Shown here piece after piece: positions 6,651-61,970 of a stretch of 64,000 nucleotides of DNA; within the stretch, counting starts at the first letter, position 1; each line of letters opens with the position of its first letter. This stretch comes from a virus. Under the pieces are notes generated by a model that made no database searches, was not told the DNA's origin, and was given only the letters and a program-made list of their open reading frames with translations. Location: IMG/VR virus record IMGVR_UViG_3300045988_119396; one strand, given 5' to 3'. The translations under genes and the position numbers were made by a program.

Positions 6651-7751
6651 TTAGTCAATAAATGTGTATTCAGCGATTGAGTTGTTTTCATCTGGGAACA
6701 AGTCAACCTTAATAGATAAGGAAGTTGGTTCTTTAGATGATTGGTTGAATGTGAAGTCAGATTGTGGACGTGCGTTCATGTAGTGAACTTGTGCAAAGTG
6801 GTCTTCACCAGTTTCAACTTGACGAATTTGTGCGTCTGCGTAGATTTCAAAACTCTTAGGGAACTTGTCAGCAGAAACAGTTAACTTGCTTGCACCTTGT
6901 ACTTTTGTTTCGTAGTATGCAACGAAGTCTGCATTTACTGGAGCTGCGTCTGATAATTGTACCAACCCGCCTTCTTTTAATTCGTATGTCAATGCTGTTT
7001 CTGTTGTAGCTGTTGCAGCTCTTTGTGCAGCTGTCTTAGCTTCTTCTGTTGCTTTAACTGTTGCACCAGCTTCTTGTGTACCTAAAGCTGTTGTTGTCAC
7101 TTCAACTTCTGCAGATAGAGCTGATTGTCCTTTTTCTGGACTTGCAGCACGAACTGTGTACTTGTATTTTGTTTGTGGTGCTAAGTCTGTATCGTTGTAG
7201 CTGTTTGTAGCAACGTCAGCAACTTTAGAACCATTGCGATATAGGATATAAGTAGCAGCACCATCAACTTTGTTCCATGTAATTGTAGCTGTCTTATCTT
7301 TTGCTGTAACAGCAACTTCTTGTGGCATAGCTAATGCTTGGTCACCACTTGCTACCTTTTCAAGAACTTCAGCTTTGTGTGAAATTCCGTCATTATCTAA
7401 TTGGAATACAGATAATGTACCTTTTTTAGGAACTAAGGATAGTTTTAATTGCTTAGAAACAGAACTTTGTAGACGTTCTTTCTTAAAGATGTCGCCTTCA
7501 CCTTCTTCAATATCACTACCCATAACCATAGCAAGTAACTTGTTGTCAAAGATTTCACTTTCGATTGTTAATGTACCTTGACGTCCAGAGTCAAATGCTA
7601 CCGCGTTGTTATTTTTCTTCTTTGCGTATACTCGGTCTGCCTTATATTCAGCGTTTGTTGCGTTTGCGTAATCTGCATAGAAGAAGATACGTCCTGTTGC
7701 TTTATCAATCACTGTAAAGTTAGCAGCGTCTTTCATAGCGTATGTTGCCAT
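6651..7751 (-). CDS. virion structural protein with C-terminal FN3/Ig-like domain (possible tail tube / major tail protein)
   Basis: 366 aa. N-terminus MATYAMKDAANFTVIDKATGRIFFYADYANATNAEYKADRVYA resembles tail-tube N-termini. FN3-like segment TATITWNKVDGAATYILYRNG...YKYTVRAA. Confidence 0.45.
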   Translation of the reverse strand: MATYAMKDAANFTVIDKATGRIFFYADYANATNAEYKADRVYAKKKNNNAVAFDSGRQGTLTIESEIFDNKLLAMVMGSDIEEGEGDIFKKERLQSSVSKQLKLSLVPKKGTLSVFQLDNDGISHKAEVLEKVASGDQALAMPQEVAVTAKDKTATITWNKVDGAATYILYRNGSKVADVATNSYNDTDLAPQTKYKYTVRAASPEKGQSALSAEVEVTTTALGTQEAGATVKATEEAKTAAQRAATATTETALTYELKEGGLVQLSDAAPVNADFVAYYETKVQGASKLTVSADKFPKSFEIYADAQIRQVETGEDHFAQVHYMNARPQSDFTFNQSSKEPTSLSIKVDLFPDENNSIAEYTFID

Positions 7752-7772
7752 AATTTGTAACCACCTTTGGTA

Positions 7773-23723: not shown

Positions 23724-24755
23724 TTAAGCTACAAATGCTGCTGGCGTTCTAAAATTCATGAGCATATTCAATTCGATTTCGTCATCATCAACAAGTTCGT
23801 AATTGTCTTTGATATAGTTTTTTACAGCACTAGCCATGAAGTTACGAATGTAAACATAAATAAAGCTGCTGGCATTTCTGATAGTTTCTTTGCCACGATA
23901 TACATGTTCAGCGATTTGTAATAATGCAGATTCCAACCCTTTAGACAATAATTCGTTAGTTTCAAAACGTGTAGCCTCCTTGCTTGCTGGTGAATATAAC
24001 CATGTATCACTAGATAGTAACTTGCTTTCAACTTGACTCTTTGCTTTGAAGATAGTGTCTACAAACCACTTAGCTTTACTGTAACTACCTTGTGATAGTG
24101 TCTTAATACGTCCAAATGTAGACTTAGTTAGTACTGGAGCTACCTTATCTTCCAATGATTTAATTGCCATATCGTCTAAATCTTGTTCAGTGGGTTGAGA
24201 AACAGGGTTAACACCAGAATTTTGTGCGGGAGTGTCTGTTTCATTTGTTTCTCTTGTAATATTATTTGTATTTCTCTCTAGGTATTTCTCACTTGTAGGA
24301 ACATTTTTCACGCTCGTGCATGAAATATTTTCACTCACGATTGTATCAACGATTTCAGCCAATTCTTTTTGAGTATCATTTACTTCGACTATTTCTTTAT
24401 TAGCTGCCACTGTTGCTTGTGGTTCATGTACATAAATCTTGTAGTGTCGTAGACCATATCTCTTAACAGTAATTAGACCATACTTCACCAATTCTTTACG
24501 TAAGCTAGATACAGTTCTAGCAGTTGTACGAACTTTTTTAGCAGCCTCTTCATTTGTGAAGAAGATAAATGGTGTTCCATCTGGGTCAACAAACTTACTA
24601 TTTCCATTTTGTGCATTATTAATAGAGCAAGACAATCTTCTTGCATAGAATGAATATAGTAATATTGCTAAACCATTTAATTCCTTGTATCTTTCATCTT
24701 CAACTAATACATCTGATACCATTGAGAATGTATCTTTTCTTTTCAATTCCATCAT
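23724..24755 (-). CDS. plasmid-type replication initiator, RepA_N family
   Basis: N-terminal LAILLYSFYARRLSCSINNAQNGNSKFVDPDGTPFIFFTNEEAAKKVRTTARTVSSLRKELVKYGLITVKRYGLRHYKIYV is a close match to the RepA_N pattern (akilYsll.drl..S..n.w.DenG.vYi.ft.eel.e.l..s..tv.k..keLe..gLI...r.g....iYv). Divergent from parA across a repeat-rich AT-rich region. Confidence 0.6.
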   Translation of the reverse strand: MMELKRKDTFSMVSDVLVEDERYKELNGLAILLYSFYARRLSCSINNAQNGNSKFVDPDGTPFIFFTNEEAAKKVRTTARTVSSLRKELVKYGLITVKRYGLRHYKIYVHEPQATVAANKEIVEVNDTQKELAEIVDTIVSENISCTSVKNVPTSEKYLERNTNNITRETNETDTPAQNSGVNPVSQPTEQDLDDMAIKSLEDKVAPVLTKSTFGRIKTLSQGSYSKAKWFVDTIFKAKSQVESKLLSSDTWLYSPASKEATRFETNELLSKGLESALLQIAEHVYRGKETIRNASSFIYVYIRNFMASAVKNYIKDNYELVDDDEIELNMLMNFRTPAAFVA

Positions 24756-25840
24756 AATTATTTACCTCTTTCAATGAATATTTTTATGATGAAAATCAAA
24801 AAACAATGTGCTATAATGTAGATAACGTATTTAAAAAACACGTTTTCAACTAATATTGTTATTTTTGAAGTTCATCATTTTAATGACTTTTAGTAACGAT
24901 ATTTTTATTTAGCTTATCGTTCGCCAAAACGTAAGCTATTCAATTTAATAGATTTATTTAATTTGTTTACAAACCGTAGTTCGCCAAAACTGACGGTTAT
25001 TTTTTTGTCTAAATTTTATATCAATTTATTTTAATGTACACCCACGTAGTTATCTTAGAGGTACTTACGTGGGTTATTTTATTAGCATAATATATCTTAC
25101 CAGGAAAATGAAGATATGTTAAGTTTTTCCTGGTTTTAAATCGTTTTGAGCACTTTACATGAAGTCTGGCTAACTCACTCATGTACTTTCAAAGTTGCTC
25201 ACGTGTGACTATATGAAGCCTGGTAGAGTTATGTGGTGTGAGATATGTAACCGCCCTACCCTACTTCTATATGTTCAATATAGCACAAAAGAAAACGGAA
25301 TAAAAGAAGTTTCTTGTAATATGCTATTTAATCATAATGATGTTATTTATTATTATTAATATAATAGTATTAACATCATATAAATGCTATATAAGTTATA
25401 TATATAAAGATTATTATTAATATAATCATCATTAATGAATATTAACCATATTAATCTTTAATAAGGTATATATCTTAACATCAATATTATTAATAATACT
25501 AAAAAGATATATATGATATAACAATCAATATTGATTAGTTTTGTAAAGTGTAAATACCTATACAATAGCAATAATAAACACTTCAAGATAAATATACATT
25601 GTTATTAATTCTATTAAGTATACTAAAAAGATATATTTATTCTTATTATTCTTTTTAGTATACTTTCATATTTATTATATATAGTATATATAAATATTAC
25701 AACACAGCGTCAATAATTGGCTATATTAAAAAGATATATTTCACCTAAAGATTAATTTTATTAATAAGATAAACAAATGTTGACCTTAATTTATTTTGGT
25801 GGTACTCTTAACACATAAAGAAAAACTGGAAGTGATTTTA
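24756..25840. promoter_or_regulatory. origin/centromere-like intergenic region (hairpins, direct repeats, parS-like iterons)
   Basis: GTTCGCCAAAAC x2 (24906, 24972). Hairpins ACCCACGTA..TTACGTGGGT (25041-25076) and ACCAGGAAAA..TTTTTCCTGGT (25100-25140). Motif AAAAAGATATAT at 25500, 25625 and 25730, with a fourth copy at ~27165 after parB. 14-bp inverted repeat AGTATACTAAAAAG/CTTTTTAGTATACT at 25612-25665. Confidence 0.45.
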
Positions 25841-26731
25841 ATGAAGTACGATAAAAAGGTTTTCGACAAATTAAAAGAACATATTAGTAAAAAGGGTGAA
25901 GCTATATCAATAGTTATTGGTAATCAAAAAGGTGGTGTTGGTAAGACAGCTAATTCAACTTTAATTTCTTATATATTAGCTGAGAATGGTATCAAAACAC
26001 TTGTAATCGACTTAGACCCACAGGGTGACGCAAGTAAGACAATGACCTTGACTGGTGTTAGGGCTGCAAGAGAAAGGAAAGCTCCAGAGTCAGAATATCC
26101 TGTAATGAGAAAAACTATCTTATTAGGGATTAAAGAAGGGGACTTAACTACGTTACCAATGAAGATAAAGGACAACCTTTACTTACTTCCTAGCTATGTT
26201 GATTTTGAAGGTTTCCCAAAACTACTATATAGAGAAACAAATAACGATAGAGAAGAAACACATTTCTTGAAGAAACTGCTAGACCCATTAAAAGCAGACT
26301 ACGAAGTTATCATTATTGACACTCCACCTCAAGTTAAAGCTGTGACAGACAATGCTATTGTATTTGCTGATTATGTAACTATTTCTTTGCAGACACAAAA
26401 AGACTCTTTAGAAGGTGCTGAAAATTACATAGATACATTAGCAGACCTAAAAGGTGAGTATGATTTACCAATTCAATTATTGGGAATTATCGCAGTATTG
26501 AATGATAAGTATAGTAGTGTTGATGAAGCTATGCTAGAACGTGTACGTGATGAAATATCAGAAAACATCTTATTGGACACAATCGTACCAAATATGGCTA
26601 GGGTCAAACGTTTCCCACTTCAAGGTATTGGGGAGTCTGATAGATACGACAAGAGTGTATTAGACGTTTATAGAGAAGTTGCTACTGACTTCTGCAGCAG
26701 AATATTAGAATTTGAAGAAGATGAAGATTAG
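25841..26731 (+). CDS. parA: ParA/Soj-family partition ATPase
   Basis: Deviant Walker A KGGVGKT (IVIGNQKGGVGKTANS). Walker A' LVIDLDPQGD. Walker B VIIIDTPP. ATG at 25841 with SD GGAAGTGA. The ORF track began at an upstream GTG. Confidence 0.8.
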   Translation: MKYDKKVFDKLKEHISKKGEAISIVIGNQKGGVGKTANSTLISYILAENGIKTLVIDLDPQGDASKTMTLTGVRAARERKAPESEYPVMRKTILLGIKEGDLTTLPMKIKDNLYLLPSYVDFEGFPKLLYRETNNDREETHFLKKLLDPLKADYEVIIIDTPPQVKAVTDNAIVFADYVTISLQTQKDSLEGAENYIDTLADLKGEYDLPIQLLGIIAVLNDKYSSVDEAMLERVRDEISENILLDTIVPNMARVKRFPLQGIGESDRYDKSVLDVYREVATDFCSRILEFEEDED

Positions 26732-27669: not shown

Positions 27670-27933
27670 ATGAAAATTTGTTATAATTGTAAAAAAGAAG
27701 TACCCGAAGATAGTATCTATTGCATGTATTGTGCAGCACCACTTAATGGTGAAGAAGTAACTAAGCAAATAAAAGAACAATTAGATGGTTTTAAGCGTGT
27801 GACAGGCGATAAGACAGATAATGAAGCTGTAAAACATCTATTGAGTTACTGGTACGATAACTTAAACGATGAAAAGAAGGAAAAATACGACAAAATAGAA
27901 CGTGAAGACAAGCAACAAGAGCTATCTAACTAA
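27670..27933 (+). CDS. Zn-ribbon protein (CxxC-x10-CxxC), paralog family with LLSYW motif
   Basis: MKICYNCKKEVPEDSIYCMYCAAP. C-terminal VKHLLSYWYDNLN. ATG at 27670 after SD GGTGAG. Confidence 0.45.
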   Translation: MKICYNCKKEVPEDSIYCMYCAAPLNGEEVTKQIKEQLDGFKRVTGDKTDNEAVKHLLSYWYDNLNDEKKEKYDKIEREDKQQELSN

Positions 27934-28088
27934 TCTAAATAGTGTTATAATAAAAGACGATACAGAGGCTTTATCCTTTTGCCCATCTGTATCACCAATA
28001 TGATATTTTTCCGATTAACCCTTTTGCCTATAGGGGTGTCTTAAGATACTAGCAACATTCCATATAACTTGTTGCTAAATTGAGTTTT

Positions 28089-28124
28089 AGACCGTTGTAT
28101 CCTTCTGCAACGGTCTTTTTATTT
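28089..28124 (+). terminator. rho-independent terminator ending the par operon
   Basis: AGACCGTTG-tatccttctg-CAACGGTCT followed by TTTTTATTT. Confidence 0.6.
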
Positions 28125-28379
28125 AGGTAGACTTCTGTGATTTTTGTCATTTATATTTACATATTTTTATGATAGAATACTAGAAATAGAAAGCCTTTGA
28201 GTATTGAATACACAATGAATGGGAGTCTTGTGTGCGATATAGGGTTATTTTAGACCATTACATTAACTTGTAGTGGTCTTTTCTTTTGTCTTAATTAAGG
28301 ATGTATTATCATAGTCGTATCATAAACTACCCTATAATAAGCTACATTATAGATTTACATACGGTGTTTTAACGTATGA

Positions 28380-29330
28380 TAAGGTAGTATTTGTCATGTA
28401 GGTCTTAAAAACCATACAAATAAGGTTTATTTAGCATTTGTAGGTATTTTATTTTTAGAATTTCGTTTTGAAAACTCAATGTAAGCGTGATAATAAGGGG
28501 CTAATATGATAACTTCTGGAATGAGTGATTTTAGGGGTAAAAACATAAGGTTTACAACCTTGTAAAGCTAGATGTAGATGTGTCGCTTATTAAGGTTCAT
28601 TTTAGAGCTACGAATATAAAATCTGAATAAAAACTAGGTAATAAGTTAATAAAGATAGGATAAATTTATAGTAAAGTTTGGAGAAAAGAAAATTGGGGTG
28701 AGTGAAAAATTCACTGTTTACATGGGCATATTAAGGTAGGTTTTTTGGAAGAATGAAAGAACAATCGAAACTTTTCATTTTTGCACCAGTAGAATGGCTG
28801 CAAGTATATTGTTACAAGGGTGTGACTCACAGGAACTTTTGTCAATGATTTATAGACAAAACTTGATGTGTCTTAGTGCGTATTTTGAGTGGTTTTTGAG
28901 CATGTTTGGAGAGAGCTAAAAGGGGCAAAATCTGTGAAAATGCAAAATATGTGATAAAAGCAGTGGTGATTTGCAGCTGGGAATTGTGAAGATTTTGTGA
29001 AGATTATAATTGGAGTGATTGTGATAGGTGGAATTAATTTTGTGGAATTATAAGATTATTGTTATGTAGTGAGTTAGATTTAGTGTATGGGTATTATAGG
29101 AGTGTAGGGGAGAGAATGAGTGAATTGGAGCTTATTATGGTCGTTAGAGTAGGATATGGCAGTAGGGGAGGGTGAAATAGCGTAGAATAGGGCATAGCAA
29201 GGGGTATTTTGGGTGATATTAGGGTGGAATGGGGAGTGAAATTGGGGTGTGTGGGGTGAGCTACTGTTTCTGAAAGGTTTTGAAAAATTTAAAAGATTTG
29301 AGACAATGTAGGGGGCTTCCAGATGCAAAA
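28380..29330. other. C-depleted (G/T/A-only) noncoding segment with G-tract runs
   Basis: Almost no C on the plus strand, e.g. 28900-29290. Many G3-4 runs (TAGGGGAGGGTG, TGGGGAGTG, GGGGTGTGTGGGGTGAG). No credible ORF on either strand. Confidence 0.6.
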
Positions 29331-29399
29331 TAATTCTAGTTATTTTTTGAAATCTAAAAAAGTATATATTTTGTACCTTGAAAAAGATTAAAAATGAAA

Positions 29400-30300
29400 G
29401 CGTTTACAGAATTAATTCAAGTATTAATATAAATTAATATAAGAAGACGCGTATATAAGTAAAATTTATGGTATCTATAAGAATAACTTATATTTTGCAC
29501 TATTAATAAAATTTGATACACAAAACTTTTATTATACCACACTCCACACAATAACACAATACTATATTTAAAATAATATGTTTCACGTGAAACACGTCTA
29601 GTTTATAACAATTCTAAACCAATAAAAACTCTAACTTACTAAAATTTACTACTTTAAAATTATTCTAAACTAATACAAATTCTAACATTTAAAACATTCT
29701 AAACTGATAAAGATTATAAACTAATAATAAATACAGGTTAATATCATTTACAACATTATAAGAATTATCAATTTATAACTATTCTAAACTACTACTTTAC
29801 TTACTATTAGTTAGTAATAACTCTATATCTTTGATATAGTACATCTACTTGAGGCGGCTGCTACTAATTTACTTACAATAAGTAAGTAACATATACTTAT
29901 ATAACTAGATGTAACACCCTTAACACGTACATAATACTAAAATGTATATTATAGTAGAAACAACACAATAAGCACTAATAACGATAAGCACACGCTTATA
30001 TATGTATCTACACCTATACGCACGTTACTGTATACACTCAAGCCCTTGATGTATCAACGTTTATCACGCTTACATTATATATAATATACATACATAGTGC
30101 ATACATATACATATACTAGATACATCAAACACTAACTATATTTAACACGTTATAAAGCCTATTGCATCAACGATTATCGCACTTATCTAATAATAATCTA
30201 TAATAAAATACTTATAAGAATAAAATAAGCATAAATAAAAGCTCTTATAATTCTACCAATACAAAACACTAATGTGTCAAGTTTTCATAATGTTTTCATA
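29400..30300. other. G-depleted (A/C/T-only) noncoding segment with iteron-like repeats
   Basis: Plus strand nearly devoid of G. Four copies of ATTCTAAAC (29611, 29662, 29696, 29781). Palindrome CACGTGAAACACGTG (~29584). (CATA)n-like low complexity around 30060-30120. Confidence 0.6.
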
Positions 30301-30371
30301 AAGTAAATGAAAGCGGATAAAGCCTTATGAAATAAGGCTTTATAGCCAGTTGAATAATATCATCTTATAAT

Positions 30372-30731
30372 TTACTTACTGGAAGTCAACCCTTGTAAAA
30401 ACGCTTTAAGTGCTATTATATCAGTGTTTGAAAGGGCTTTACCATTGTATGTAACACCAGTTTTCAAAATGGTATCCAATTCATTATTATTGATAAGATT
30501 TTTATTATCTTTATTATCAGATAGACCGTATAAATAATCTAAACTTACATTATACAAGTTAGCTAATTTTAAAGCGTTTGTGCTGGTTAATATGTTTTTA
30601 CCGTGTTCAATATCTGAATAAGTACCGTGACTTTTTAAGTCAATTTTTTTAGCTATATCTTGCATTGTGTAACCTTTTTCAATTCTTAACTCTTTCAAAC
30701 GGGAAGCAGCCGTAAATCTATTGTACAACAT
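30372..30731 (-). CDS. XRE-family HTH transcriptional repressor (CI-like)
   Basis: ASRLKELRIEKGYTMQDIAKKIDLKSHGTYSDIEHGKNI matches the HTH_XRE pattern. Transcribed divergently from the tandem promoter-operator array. Confidence 0.7.
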   Translation of the reverse strand: MLYNRFTAASRLKELRIEKGYTMQDIAKKIDLKSHGTYSDIEHGKNILTSTNALKLANLYNVSLDYLYGLSDNKDNKNLINNNELDTILKTGVTYNGKALSNTDIIALKAFLQGLTSSK

Positions 30732-30883: not shown

Positions 30884-31348
30884 TTGACAAGCTACTAACA
30901 AGGGTTTATAGTGTTTATTGTCGATAAAGTCGACAACACAAAAACATATTTTTTAATTGTAAGCTTCCAATTTTTAAAAATTTTGAAAAAAGGAATTGAC
31001 AAGAAAAAACATATATGTTTTAATAACGTTGTCAATAAGGTCGACAAGTTGGAAGCCGTGAATTGACGGTATATAATATCAATTCATACTTAATTTAATA
31101 AATGCTTCCAGTAAAGGAAGCTACAAAATAAAGATTTTAAAAATCTTTAAAAAGTAGTTGACAAAATGGAAGTTATAAATTATATTAAGAGCGTCGATTA
31201 AATCGACAACTTATATAATAATTTTAGGAAGCTTCCACTTCCTAACCTTGAAAAATCAAGGGTAAAAAGATTTTTAAAATCTTTTTAAAAAGCTCTTGAC
31301 AAAATTCAAGGAAGCAATTATTATATAAATTGTCGATAAGGTCGACAA
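30884..31348 (+). promoter_or_regulatory. array of four tandem promoter + palindromic operator + hairpin modules (rightward)
   Basis: TTGACA at 30884, 30996, 31158 and 31296. Each is followed after 17 nt by a -10 (TATAGT, TTTAAT, TATATT, TTATAT). Each is then followed by the operator TTGTCGA-N5-TCGACAA at 30918-30936, 31029-31047, 31191-31209 and 31330-31348. GGAAGC/GCTTCC hairpins and A/T palindromes (AAAGATTTTTAAAATCTTT) lie between units. Confidence 0.6.
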
Positions 31349-31349
31349 A

Positions 31350-31800
31350 AAAATAAAGCCTCTGAGTTGGGGCTTCCGATAATACCAACTCAATAAGTCA
31401 AAATTTATTTTGTTTGGAAGTACGCCCCGTACGTGGGGCGGGGGTATAAATAGCGTACAAAACACCACTCTTCAGGTGGGGGTGGTGGGTAAAATAAACT
31501 ACTATCTAACCCCTGGGTAGCCCTGGGCGTTCTTTGGACAACTGAATAAAATTTCAAGGGTAGCTCCTTGAGAGTGGAAGCCGTCTTCACTATAAATAAT
31601 ACGGAAGAGCCACGGCAAGCATAGCCGTGACACTCGGCTCAAAGCGGGTTCAATAGGTGGAGTGCATCCTCCCTCGCTTTACTAGCAATGGTAAAGCGGT
31701 ACTATTGTACGTCAATAAAATGGAGAACCTGGCGGGGCTTGCTTAATAACCCGATACGGTAGGGGTTAGCCAGAACGGGCATGAAAACATTAATTCTACC
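31350..31800 (+). ncRNA. GC-rich, densely structured noncoding RNA candidate (~450 nt)
   Basis: No ORF. Sharply higher GC than the flanking sequence. At least ten local helices, including GAGTTGG/CCAACTC, GCCCC-GTACGT-GGGGC, CACCAC/GTGGTG, CTCAAGG/CCTTGAG, GAGCC..CACGGC/GCCGTG..GGCTC, AAAGCGGG/CCTCGCTTT and CTGGC/GCCAG. Downstream of the four tandem promoters and upstream of the first early gene. Confidence 0.45.
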
Positions 31801-31952
31801 AGACTATATATAAATATAGTTTAATGTTTGACAAAACTTGAGTAATCATACAACCTCTAATTTAACAAAATCAATAAATTGATTTTGTTATTAAGCACTA
31901 TGCAAGTAGTGTTTAATATAAAAATCAATAAAATTTAGAGGAGGTACTTATT

Positions 31953-32195
31953 ATGAGTACTAGATTACAAGAAACAACATACGTAAGAAGTGGTAAAGGT
32001 AAACGCTGGAGTTTGAAAGAAACAGAATACATTGATGATTACAGTATCAAGCTATTTGAAAAGCGTATCATTGGTACGGTAGGTTTCTTCAGAAATTTAG
32101 GTGGTACTGAAATTGTATCACGTACTGAATACATGGTGACGTCAATCAGTCCAGACAGTACCAAGAAAGTTGTAAGAAAATTATTATTGTATTAA
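31953..32195 (+). CDS. hypothetical early protein (first gene of early operon)
   Basis: 80 aa, SD AGAGGAGG 8 nt upstream of the ATG. Confidence 0.5.
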   Translation: MSTRLQETTYVRSGKGKRWSLKETEYIDDYSIKLFEKRIIGTVGFFRNLGGTEIVSRTEYMVTSISPDSTKKVVRKLLLY

Positions 32196-32213: not shown

Positions 32214-32268
32214 AGGGTAGGTTAGTACATAGAAAAAATTCTATCAAGGTGCAAATCCTTGCTATCCT
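32214..32268 (+). ncRNA. miniature tRNA-like element (acceptor stem + T-arm, no anticodon loop)
   Basis: AGGGTAG...CAAGG-TGCAAAT-CCTTG-CTATCCT. 7-bp acceptor pairing with one G-U. T-arm with a 7-nt loop close to the TTCRANY consensus. Internal TAGAA-aaaa-TTCTA hairpin. 55 nt. Confidence 0.35.
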
Positions 32269-32319
32269 ATATCACTAGATTTTTCTAGTGAAAAAATAAA
32301 CATTGTGGAGGTAGTCAAA

Positions 32320-34494: not shown

Positions 34495-34605
34495 ATTTTA
34501 GTGTTGACAAGGAAAAATAAAGAAGTTATAATTCAGTTGTCAAGTTAAGAGTACAGAGAATAACTTGATAGCAAAAAATAAAATAATTTGAAAGAGGTAA
34601 TTATT

Positions 34606-60951: not shown

Positions 60952-61180
60952 TAATGTAGTAACAGTATATACTAAGAATAATTGTCCGCAATGCAAGATA
61001 ACAAAACGTAAGTTGCATATTTTGGGTATTAACTATCATGAACACAATGTAGATGAAGACCCTAAAGCATTAGAATATCTAATAGAAAGAGGCTTGCGTA
61101 GTTTACCTGTTGTAGTTACAGAAGATGATACATGGACTGGGCTACGAATGGATAAGTTAAACAATCTTCAAAAAAGATGA
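60932..61180 (+). CDS. nrdH: NrdH-like glutaredoxin (CPQC active site)
   Basis: VTVYTKNNCPQCKITKRKL..INYHEHNVDEDP..LPVVVTEDDTWTG. Confidence 0.7.
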   Translation: MTTVSTNNVVTVYTKNNCPQCKITKRKLHILGINYHEHNVDEDPKALEYLIERGLRSLPVVVTEDDTWTGLRMDKLNNLQKR

Positions 61181-61199
61181 ATATTTCTTAGTTTTTCTG

Positions 61200-61258
61200 T
61201 TGACTTTTATTTTCTATGTGGTATCATAATATATGTAGTTAAGAGTTAAGAGAATAAA
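61200..61258 (+). promoter_or_regulatory. promoter (TTGACT...) + leader motif variant GTTAAGAGTTAAGAGAATAAA (copy 3)
   Basis: Motif at 61238-61258. Left flank of the tRNA-like/TnpB island. Confidence 0.5.
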
Positions 61259-61346
61259 CGAGCAACTCAAAGCTACAACAAAACAATTAAATAAATCTAT
61301 TATATGCGTTGAGCTTACAAAATGTGTCCTGTTAAGTAAGTCAACA

Positions 61347-61424
61347 ATCGGATAGCTTAATGGCAGAGCGTACGAGTATGATAACGATACTTGTAAGGTT
61401 TGATGTTCAATTCATCAATCCGAT
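61347..61424 (+). ncRNA. tRNA-like cloverleaf (78 nt) with non-canonical extended anticodon arm
   Basis: Acceptor ATCGGAT/ATCCGAT (7 bp). D-arm GCT-taatggcag-AGC. 9-bp stem TACGAGTAT/ATACTTGTA with loop GATAACG. T-arm TGATG-TTCAATT-CATCA. No encoded CCA. Confidence 0.35.
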
Positions 61425-61970
61425 ATTTGTCACAGTGATTATTTGACAATAATGTTTATTTTGTACTCATGATGAGTACCTCCTTTTATTTAAACTTATT
61501 TTTCTGAATTATGTAGTACGTATACCTAATCACTGTGGCACACCTCCAAGTTAGATTGGTAGGTGGGTAAGATAACGGTATTGCCCATCTACAAAAGAGT
61601 TGGCACTTCTCCTACATAAAATTAGAATTAATGTTTCATTCCAGTCAGCTCTTTTGTAGGTGAACAAAACTTAGTTTGCCTAAACAATTTTCGCAAGTCT
61701 GAAAGGATTTGTACTTTCCAAATTGATGGTGTTCTATGGTTAGTATTTCTCTAGTCTATTTTGTTAATTATTTTAATACTAATTTTAATATCATCTCTTT
61801 AACACTTTTTATTTTTATATTATTTTGTTTTTATCTGAATGTCAGCCCATTAGGGTTGATATATCAGCGAGTAGACGGTTGACTTTTTGATATATTTTTT
61901 ACGACCTCCGATTTTATGCTTGTTTTTTAAGCTACTCGTTGATATATCCATCTTAGTCGGAGGTGTAAGC

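Follow-up and report, generated by a model that had tools for sequence, protein, structure and literature searches.

A large, densely folded RNA is predicted at the head of the early operon in an L. salivarius phage-plasmid

This analysis concerns a GC-rich block at positions 31350-31804 of a 64,000-nucleotide (nt) stretch of viral DNA (IMG/VR record IMGVR_UViG_3300045988_119396; the whole stretch is called the window), which is predicted to encode a large structured RNA. The window carries phage structural genes (portal protein and tail proteins, minus strand) together with plasmid functions, namely a DnaD/RepA-like initiator (23724-24755) and ParA (25796-26731). On the strength of these structural and plasmid genes, the homologues of its repressor and a match in the plasmid database PLSDB, the source is a Ligilactobacillus (L.) salivarius phage-plasmid of ~127 kb belonging to the pMP1046B family, and not an integrated prophage. 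Plasmid pMP1046B of L. salivarius JCM1046 (NZ_CP007648.1, 129 kb, circular) is the sole PLSDB plasmid matched by the RNA block in blastn searches (7310-7768), and the RNA region carries no annotation there. It was published as a cryptic 'candidate chromid', with the RNA not mentioned (PMC4165912). The locus comprises the following features.

30372-30731, minus strand: XRE-family helix-turn-helix (HTH) repressor gene, an open reading frame (ORF) of 119 amino acids (aa), divergent from the early promoters.
30884-31348, plus strand: array of four early promoters, each with an operator (promoter scan, sequence reading, repeat family D2).
30884-30912 and 30918-30936, plus strand: promoter P1 and operator O1 (scan, 11/12 consensus positions).
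30996-31024 and 31029-31047, plus strand: promoter P2 and operator O2 (read by eye: TTGACA, 17 nt, TTTAAT).
31158-31186 and 31193-31207, plus strand: promoter P3 and operator O3 (scan, 11/12 consensus positions).
31296-31324 and 31330-31348, plus strand: promoter P4 and operator O4 (scan, 11/12 consensus positions).
31350-31804, plus strand: predicted structured RNA ('window-type'), ~455 nt, running from conserved AAAUAAAGC to CUACCAGAC according to homologues and a curated fold.
31803-31829, plus strand: AU-rich hairpin ACUAUAU-AUAA-AUAUAGU followed by U-rich UUAAUGUUU, a weak terminator-like 3' boundary (-6.2 kcal/mol, z = -3.0).
31828-31856, plus strand: degenerate copy of the promoter unit (repeat D5; TTGACA..., 76% identical to promoter P4), with a poor -10 hexamer, failing the promoter scan.
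31864-31889 and 31893-31914, plus strand: leader hairpins A and B (-21.5 kcal/mol, z = -6.9), just upstream of a ribosome-binding site.
31953-32195, plus strand: first early ORF (ORF1), 80 aa, from the ORF list; other small ORFs replace it in relatives.

This map agrees with the initial annotation, which had placed the block between a lysogeny switch and the first early gene and had noted four tandem sigma70-type promoters upstream (three pass the scan, and promoter P2 was recognised by eye). Each operator is a 15-19-bp inverted repeat, TTGTCGAT-AAG-GTCGACAA or a variant of it, a few bases 3' of its promoter. The -35 and -10 hexamers as well as the operators are kept in relatives L001 and L002. 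Transcription from promoter P4 would start near 31331, and the RNA begins within ~20 nt of this putative start, ahead of all early genes. The repressor has dozens of homologues (Pfam HTH_3/HTH_19, 58-99% identity), all from L. salivarius or from pig/chicken gut assemblies and many on 120-129-kb contigs; operator type varies with the repressor clade.

The block had been described as GC-rich and ORF-free in an AT-rich phage, and its composition bears this out. GC content is 40-50% over 31300-31800 and 45-50% within 31350-31804, as against 25-30% in the 2 kb on either side, and the longest ORF overlapping the block has at most 64 aa, with 4-11 stops in every frame. Among homologues, 33 of the 39 scored indel runs are not multiples of 3 (1, 2, 8, 10 or 19 nt). 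A protein-coding reading was rejected because of the stops in all frames and the frame-breaking indels. The single-sequence folding energy is modestly unusual (z = -2.6 on the plus strand, -2.8 on the minus strand); the fold exceeds chance by virtue of covariation, not of the visible hairpins.

The initial annotation had proposed a large structured RNA, to be checked by covariation among homologues. Nine distinct homologues, 79-98% identical and all at the same position in the pMP1046B family, were gathered through repressor-protein searches and exact DNA patterns (window-type copies: L017, L002/L011, L003, L035/36, L048-55, L034, L033 and L067). All column pairs were screened for stacked, always-paired, covarying runs, after which the fold was curated. 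It contains 17 helices with 103 pairs, two pseudoknots, two long-range closing helices and GNRA tetraloops. Across eight sequences 98.1% of the cells are standard pairs and 26 of the 103 pairs changed on both sides, while slid controls, with the 3' partners moved by 1-3 columns, leave 42-51% paired with 1-2 both-side changes. None of 500 shuffles attained the curated-fold values. RNAalifold independently predicted 93 pairs, 24 of which keep pairing through both-side changes. The RNA is assigned to the plus strand because of its G-U pairs (130 cells, 16.5% of fold cells), its GNRA loops (GCAA, GAAA) and the orientation of the promoters; placed on the minus strand, the same fold has 81.6% of its cells paired. 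By this comparative evidence 31350-31804 (plus strand) appears to encode a highly structured non-coding RNA that had not been described before and whose conserved core, ~345 nt, begins at 31459. The predicted elements of the RNA, all on the plus strand, are listed from 5' to 3'.

31358-62/31762-66: closing helix P1, weakly supported (invariant or changed on one side).
31363-31458: optional 5' domain, ~100 nt, with helices P2 and P3 and pseudoknot PK1.
31363-70/31385-92: helix P2; 4 pairs changed on both sides (GAGUUGG/CCAACUC vs CAAGUGA/UCACUUG).
31423-28/31435-40: helix P3, within the optional 5' domain.
31429-33/31454-58: pseudoknot PK1, involving the loop of helix P3; GUACG/CGUAC vs GCACG/CGUGC in L002, by eye.
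31463-70/31480-87: helix P4, its loop engaged in pseudoknot PK2.
31474-79/31502-07: pseudoknot PK2; AGGUGG/CUAUCU vs GGGUGU/ACACUC, all six pairs kept, 5 variable positions.
31512-17/31522-27: hairpin P5, loop UAGC; CCUGGG/CCUGGG vs CCUGGG/CUCAGG and CUCAGG/CCUGGG, all pairs kept.
31529-31629: central domain, in which helix P6 encloses helices P6a and P6b and is followed by helix P7.
31529-35/31604-10: long-range helix P6, invariant.
31553-59/31566-72: helix P6a; 3 pairs changed on both sides.
31573-78/31586-91: helix P6b; 2 pairs changed on both sides.
31611-16/31624-29: helix P7, invariant loop AAGCAUA; CACGGC/GCCGUG vs GUAUGC/GCAUAC, 4/6 pairs changed on both sides.
31636-31739: 3' domain, closed by helices P8 and P9 and enclosing P10, P11 and an optional hairpin.
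31636-40/31735-39: long-range helix P8; 3 haplotypes (GGCUC/GGGCU, GGUCA/UGAUU, GGCAC/GUGUU), all pairing, 3 double changes.
31641-48/31673-80: alternative helix AAAGCGGG / CUCGCUUU, which excludes P9 and the outer part of P11.
31645-51/31725-31: long-range helix P9; 4 haplotypes, all pairing, 3 double changes.
31656-62/31669-74: helix P10, within the 3' domain.
31675-84/31689-98: helix P11 with a GCAA tetraloop, within the 3' domain.
Near 31699-31712: optional hairpin, deleted in L035 and L033.
31756-31804: 3' end of the RNA, with the 3' strand of P1, helices P14 and P13 and a variable tail.
31758-61/31797-800: helix P14, likewise invariant or changed on one side, with weak support.
31780-83/31788-91: helix P13, loop GAAA or AAAA; CGUG/CACG, UAUG/CAUA and (C)AUG/CAU(U), 2 double changes.
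31792-31796: unpaired palindromic tail between P13 and P14, with three alleles (AAUU, GCAUGC, GUAC).

The fold is well supported overall by these comparisons, not helix by helix, since helices P1, P6, P10 and P14 are invariant or changed on one side only. The 5' domain is dispensable: in L033, L034 and L067 a 17-nt GCUUCC-N5-GGAAGU hairpin takes its place. Pseudoknot PK1 scores only 82% paired with no double change in the pair count, L002 being misaligned there. Recombination is visible in L067, which has one A-A mismatch in helix P4. Invariant loops (AAGCAUA on helix P7, UAGC on hairpin P5) cap covarying stems, which suggests tertiary or partner contacts. In L017, a 98%-identical copy, the tip of helix P11 (~1530-1545, equal to window 31682-31691) is inverted in the DNA, CTAGCAATGG to CCATTGCTAG; the stem is kept and the plus-strand GCAA tetraloop is lost. 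The different 4-6-nt palindrome in each tail allele would suit self-association and could be due to chance.

Four of the helices picked out in the initial annotation are recovered by homologue comparison: GCCCC/GGGGC (helix P3), CACCAC/GTGGTG (helix P4), CTCAAGG/CCTTGAG (helix P6a) and CACGGC/GCCGTG (helix P7). Two outer helices, GTACGC/GCGTAC and GAGCC/GGCTC, were rejected, since they are broken in relatives and other partners covary instead. The helix P3 loop GUACG forms a pseudoknot with CGUAC, GAGC is part of helix P6, and GGCUC belongs to helix P8, where it covaries with a partner 100 nt away. Another proposed helix, AAAGCGGG/CCTCGCTTT (31641-48/31673-80), can form in every sequence but conflicts with the better-supported P9 and P11. 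A U-to-C change in the 31673-80 region (L035/L033) is compensated in both possible partners, the alternative helix and P11. As a single evolutionary event, this hints that 31641-80 holds a conserved transient or alternative fold, possibly a switch or a folding intermediate.

No known family was matched when Rfam was searched, as the initial annotation had advised. Rfam 15 at gathering thresholds over the whole 64-kb window gave no match; at E<=10 nothing relevant was found on either strand of 31100-32000 (901 nt), nor anything at E<=0.1 in relatives L003, L011, L012 and L013. ARAGORN found no tRNA or tmRNA. The ROOL identity (RF03087) was rejected, as its model matches neither at the gathering threshold nor at E<=10, and so was GOLLD (RF01998), whose model does not match and whose members have 800 nt or more against ~455 nt here. 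Group I/II introns, RNase P, tmRNA, 6S, OLE, HEARO and raiA were likewise rejected for want of an Rfam or ARAGORN match, and no aptamer model of an Rfam riboswitch or other known leader matches. Of the two outcomes first envisaged, a ROOL/GOLLD member or a new large RNA, the second is thus favoured by the homologues, the compensatory changes and the empty Rfam search. The phage setting of ROOL-type RNAs is present (portal and tail proteins). Their proximity to tRNA genes, which the initial annotation had invoked, is absent, the only tRNA-model match (61347-61425) lying ~30 kb away.

Sequence searches beyond the family were also negative. The RNA had no blastn match among INPHARED phages. In GTDB genomes the pattern GGGNNNCCCTGGGCGTTCTTTGG found only a repeat in one Angelakisella metagenome-assembled genome (MAG), with no further similarity. 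That match (Angelakisella sp. MAG JAAWEO01; L005-L010) sets a 23-nt pattern against a multi-copy repeat at many contig ends of a high-GC MAG and was discarded as chance, with ~1 expected; an IMG/VR match (L004), in a high-GC contig, is likewise due to chance. A first metagenome pattern found nothing, and a second found one further family member, L067. A literature search found no paper describing the window RNA. In L. salivarius UCC118 there is an abundant stable 520-nt RNA that outnumbers 16S rRNA (PMC5643018), since identified as ROOL (PMC12286853). The ROOL locus of L. salivarius megaplasmids was considered as the same repressor-promoter-RNA module and rejected: the megaplasmid repressor homologues lie beside rpiA/rpe, with no Rfam RNA nearby.

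It is very improbable that the block is a family already described, or a GC-rich remnant without function, for instance a captured fragment. The host species does have ROOL on a megaplasmid (PMC5643018, PMC12286853), and foreign fragments do sometimes form GC-rich islands in AT-rich genomes. Nevertheless, Rfam 15 and ARAGORN give nothing relevant, and a remnant would not hold 98% pairing through 26 double substitutions, nor would it keep invariant loops.

The position of the RNA is itself informative. It is a slot bounded by the last operator and, at its other end, by the pair of conserved leader hairpins, and in the heteroimmune relatives L012 and L013 (127-kb contigs) it holds other ORF-free GC-rich sequences of ~450 and ~430 nt.

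L012:1950-2400, minus strand: L012-type RNA, recurring at L056:1530-1924 (minus strand).
L013:2010-2440, minus strand: L013-type RNA, a single sequence with UUCG and GNRA loops (z = -2.4).

The L012-type recurs in L056-L061 at 80% identity, beside yet another repressor type; between its two copies 8 of 95 pairs are double-compensated and none is broken (z = -5.75). No similarity among the three slot RNA types was found by blastn, nhmmer or a 3'-domain covariance model run without filters, which gave only insignificant hairpin-sized matches, and the idea that they are distant homologues was rejected on these grounds. Searches of Rfam, PLSDB, INPHARED and IMG/VR found neither the L012-type nor the L013-type RNA. 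The window-type RNA occurs with at least 2 operator types and several different first ORFs, and the L012-type with two operator types. In these arrangements RNA type reassorts independently of both the repressor/operator type and the downstream genes. The slot probably hosts three, and at least two, distinct structured RNA families as independent modules. Because close relatives carry unrelated folded RNAs there, the position seems to be reserved for a large RNA.

Downstream of the slot, every window-type locus keeps the AU-rich hairpin 31803-31829, in L034 with a change compatible with G-U pairing; a stricter terminator scan does not list it. Leader hairpins A and B are common to the loci of all three RNA types, including downstream of the L012-type and L013-type RNAs, and hairpin A shows a compensatory change (AAUCAAU/AUUGAUU vs AAUCUA/UAGAUU). 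No promoter passing the scan lies between the RNA and the first early ORF. ORF1 has no Pfam or PHROG match and no relative in IMG/VR. Further into the early operon lies a tRNA-like intergenic element (32214-32270, plus strand) with copies in L002 (two), L003 and L067. It consists of a 7-bp stem (AGGGUAG/CUAUCCU) stacked on a T-arm-like hairpin (CAAGG-UGCAAAU-CCUUG), plus a covarying variable hairpin. The element is conserved although the flanking ORFs differ, and ARAGORN misses it. Its role may be that of an RNase P-type signal for processing.

The main rival reading, somewhat unlikely, makes the RNA a leader that acts in cis on the early operon, working by put-like processive antitermination or as a sensor whose alternative folds gate early transcription. 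It lies where nut and put sites do, between an operator-controlled early promoter and the first gene and beside the immunity region, and since no promoter downstream passes the scan, all early transcription would pass through it. A weak terminator-like hairpin and the two conserved leader hairpins come after it. Strand 31673-80 pairs with 31641-48 or 31690-98, with one substitution compensated in both, much like the 1:2 versus 2:3 choice of an attenuator. Lambdoid phages, too, exchange the antitermination module beside their immunity region between relatives: HK022 put and lambdoid nut/N stand just after operator-controlled early promoters, and the module differs between close heteroimmune relatives. 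However, put (~70 nt, two stem-loops) acts strictly in cis on RNA polymerase, whereas the window RNA has ~455 nt and 17 helices, being 5-6 times larger and far more complex than put or EAR (~120 nt). Nor is a put-type need for suppressing downstream terminators evident, as terminator-like sites are not enriched in the 19 kb after the RNA (6 found vs 5.1 expected). The early region also has strong promoters of its own, at 34504-34532 (plus strand; a perfect 12/12 sigma70 consensus of TTGACA, 17 nt and TATAAT), 42277 and 45136. The mutually exclusive helices are conserved but unlinked to a convincing terminator or ribosome-binding site, and the alternative pairing depends on one evolutionary event. 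The lack of any Rfam riboswitch or leader match also counts against a leader, and three unrelated RNAs for one host polymerase in one species would be hard to account for.

A further, improbable reading is that the RNA is an immunity or antisense regulator, processed from the leader of an operon under its own control like the CI RNA of P4 or the c4 RNA of P1/P7, and pairs with sites in its own or other phage transcripts. Like those, it would be a non-coding RNA released by processing from the early/immunity operon leader of a plasmid-prophage. It is encoded in a phage-plasmid beside the immunity region, it varies between heteroimmune relatives, and the tRNA-like minihelix at 32214-32270 could direct the RNase P-type processing. 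Yet the known immunity RNAs are short and simple (about 69-77 nt, with short antisense pairing to conserved targets), not 455-nt pseudoknotted folds, and here RNA type is uncoupled from immunity type, reassorting freely with repressor/operator type. No conserved target was found in the 64-kb window: the best complementarity covers 14 nt (61623-61636, E about 0.09), and that segment is not kept in pMP1046B, where the RNA has another tail allele than the window RNA.

Between the ParA/zinc-ribbon genes and the repressor lies a stretch of ~2.4 kb (27930-30370) without convincing ORFs. It is nearly C-free over 28900-29300 (GC skew +0.8) and nearly G-free over 29500-30250 (skew -0.7), and it contains an iteron-like array at 29605-29732 (17-bp unit ATAAAAATTCTAAACTA, 7.5 copies) that is kept in pMP1046B and has no Rfam match. 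This skewed, ORF-poor stretch is probably a partition or replication site. Its presence invites the reading, slightly more doubtful even than an immunity RNA, that the constraint on the block acts at the level of replication, either through a primer or origin-activating RNA like ColE1 RNA II or through a lytic origin in which the GC-rich block acts as DNA. The element is also a plasmid (RepA/DnaD-like, ParA), the block is ~1.6 kb from the iteron-like array and the strongly skewed region, and ColE1 RNA II is likewise a structured transcript of ~550 nt from a strong promoter. Against this, the compensatory changes are G-U-rich and strand-specific, which indicates selection on a plus-strand molecule in single-stranded form rather than on duplex DNA. 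The RNA has no iterons, DnaA boxes or AT-rich unwinding element next to it, and three unrelated sequences fill the slot. In pMP1046B the replication region has been assigned to repA/repB, several kb from the RNA locus (PMC4165912).

Other observations concern the regulatory region and the far end of the window. GGAAG/CTTCC words reach their window maximum at 30900-31650 (13, against a mean of 1.1 per 750 nt) and are found in the RNA as well as in the promoter spacers and the hairpins between promoters; in the L013 immunity type, equivalent places carry GGATC/GATCC. The enrichment may mark the site of a second regulator. L. salivarius megaplasmids (L014-L016, L023-L032, L038-L047, L066) carry 1-3 tandem homologues of the phage-plasmid repressor (43-83% identity), adjoining DUF805/zinc-ribbon genes and rpiA/rpe and without early promoters or RNA. 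These may provide immunity against such phage-plasmids or be remnants. The distant tRNA-like gene (61347-61425, plus strand) is atypical, with an extended anticodon arm, and lies inside an ORF-poor stretch (61180-61890). It scores 35.5 bits against the Rfam tRNA model (gathering score 29) in sensitive mode only, being missed by ARAGORN and by the fast whole-window Rfam scan. It is preceded by an extended -10 promoter (TTGACT..TGGTATCAT, about 61202-61230), and the 700-nt region around it is 89% conserved in pMP1046B and also has a long hairpin (61577-61671).

The reading tentatively favoured for the RNA itself, held at rather less than even confidence, is that of an abundant early RNA acting in trans as a stable folded particle, in a niche like that of ROOL and GOLLD. 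When the repressor leaves its operators, upon infection or induction, all early transcription would start with the RNA, which would for this reason be made first and in large amounts, as the earliest and probably the most abundant early product. It would fold co-transcriptionally, possibly by way of the conserved transient hairpin (31641-80), and the weak terminator at 31803-31829, processing or both would free it from the early transcript. The freed RNA would then bind a host or phage macromolecule in trans, with a role in take-over or counter-defence. A trans role is favoured because the structural complexity and invariant loops exceed what a leader needs, and because phage positions that are hypervariable and expressed first usually have a role in take-over or counter-defence. 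It is also favoured because unrelated RNAs replace one another here, much as ROOL and GOLLD share genomic contexts (PMC12286853). The conserved weak terminator after the RNA would be a further argument, as would the precedent of the abundant stable ROOL RNA in L. salivarius (PMC5643018).

Several points weigh against a trans-acting particle. The RNA is known here from sequence alone, its ends, abundance and stability being predictions. The terminator is weak (-6.2 kcal/mol, AU stem), and because expression of the early genes seems to need read-through, the RNA is in physical terms a leader. A binding partner could not be identified, and the early proteins, for which neither Pfam nor PHROG gives a function, offer no clue to one. 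ROOL and GOLLD differ in that the window RNA is not beside tRNA genes and has so far been found only in one phage-plasmid family of one species. Sequence diversity is low, with 2-4 haplotypes per helix and alleles shuffled by recombination, so the number of independent events is small. For the 3' domain Infernal gives an effective sequence number of 1.17, at which formal per-helix covariation significance cannot be claimed.

Not being a member of either family, the window RNA may still occupy a similar niche. Like ROOL it is large, pseudoknotted, enriched in GC and non-coding; both belong to mobile elements of Lactobacillales, occur in one and the same host species and have a very strong promoter context, and ROOL shares its niche with an unrelated large RNA (GOLLD) as three cassette types share one slot here. 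ROOL differs in size (about 520-660 nt, against ~455 nt with a core of 345) and in the lack of a covariance-model match, and the window RNA, unlike ROOL, is under repressor/operator control and heads a phage early operon. GOLLD is similarly a phage- or prophage-borne large ornate Lactobacillales RNA whose 3' part is conserved and whose 5' part is variable or dispensable, but it usually adjoins tRNAs and its secondary structure is unrelated. GOLLD expression is tied to the lytic cycle (PMC12286853).

A bolder proposal, speculative and on balance unlikely, is that the early leader is a swappable slot for large RNA-only machines. The at least 3 unrelated ~430-460-nt RNAs would then be analogues, self-assembling particles or ribozymes that hit a host target at lytic onset, for example in counter-defence. 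To our knowledge, large and intricately folded bacterial or phage RNAs are rare, the known ones being ribozymes, ribonucleoprotein cores and recently RNA-only cages, and we know of no function yet established for the phage-borne ornate RNAs ROOL and GOLLD. If the proposal is true, these phage-plasmids would offer the first genetically tractable, repressor-switchable system for the function of ROOL/GOLLD-like RNAs. Because the slot is interchangeable and a repressor switch is present, the function of such RNAs is experimentally approachable, and the setting permits direct tests that ROOL and GOLLD have lacked. The window RNA represents a new large-RNA family with good comparative support, predicted to be the first product of an early programme under a defined repressor/operator switch. 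It indicates that the immunity and early regions of phage-plasmids can hold RNA modules that are wholly missed by gene-based annotation.

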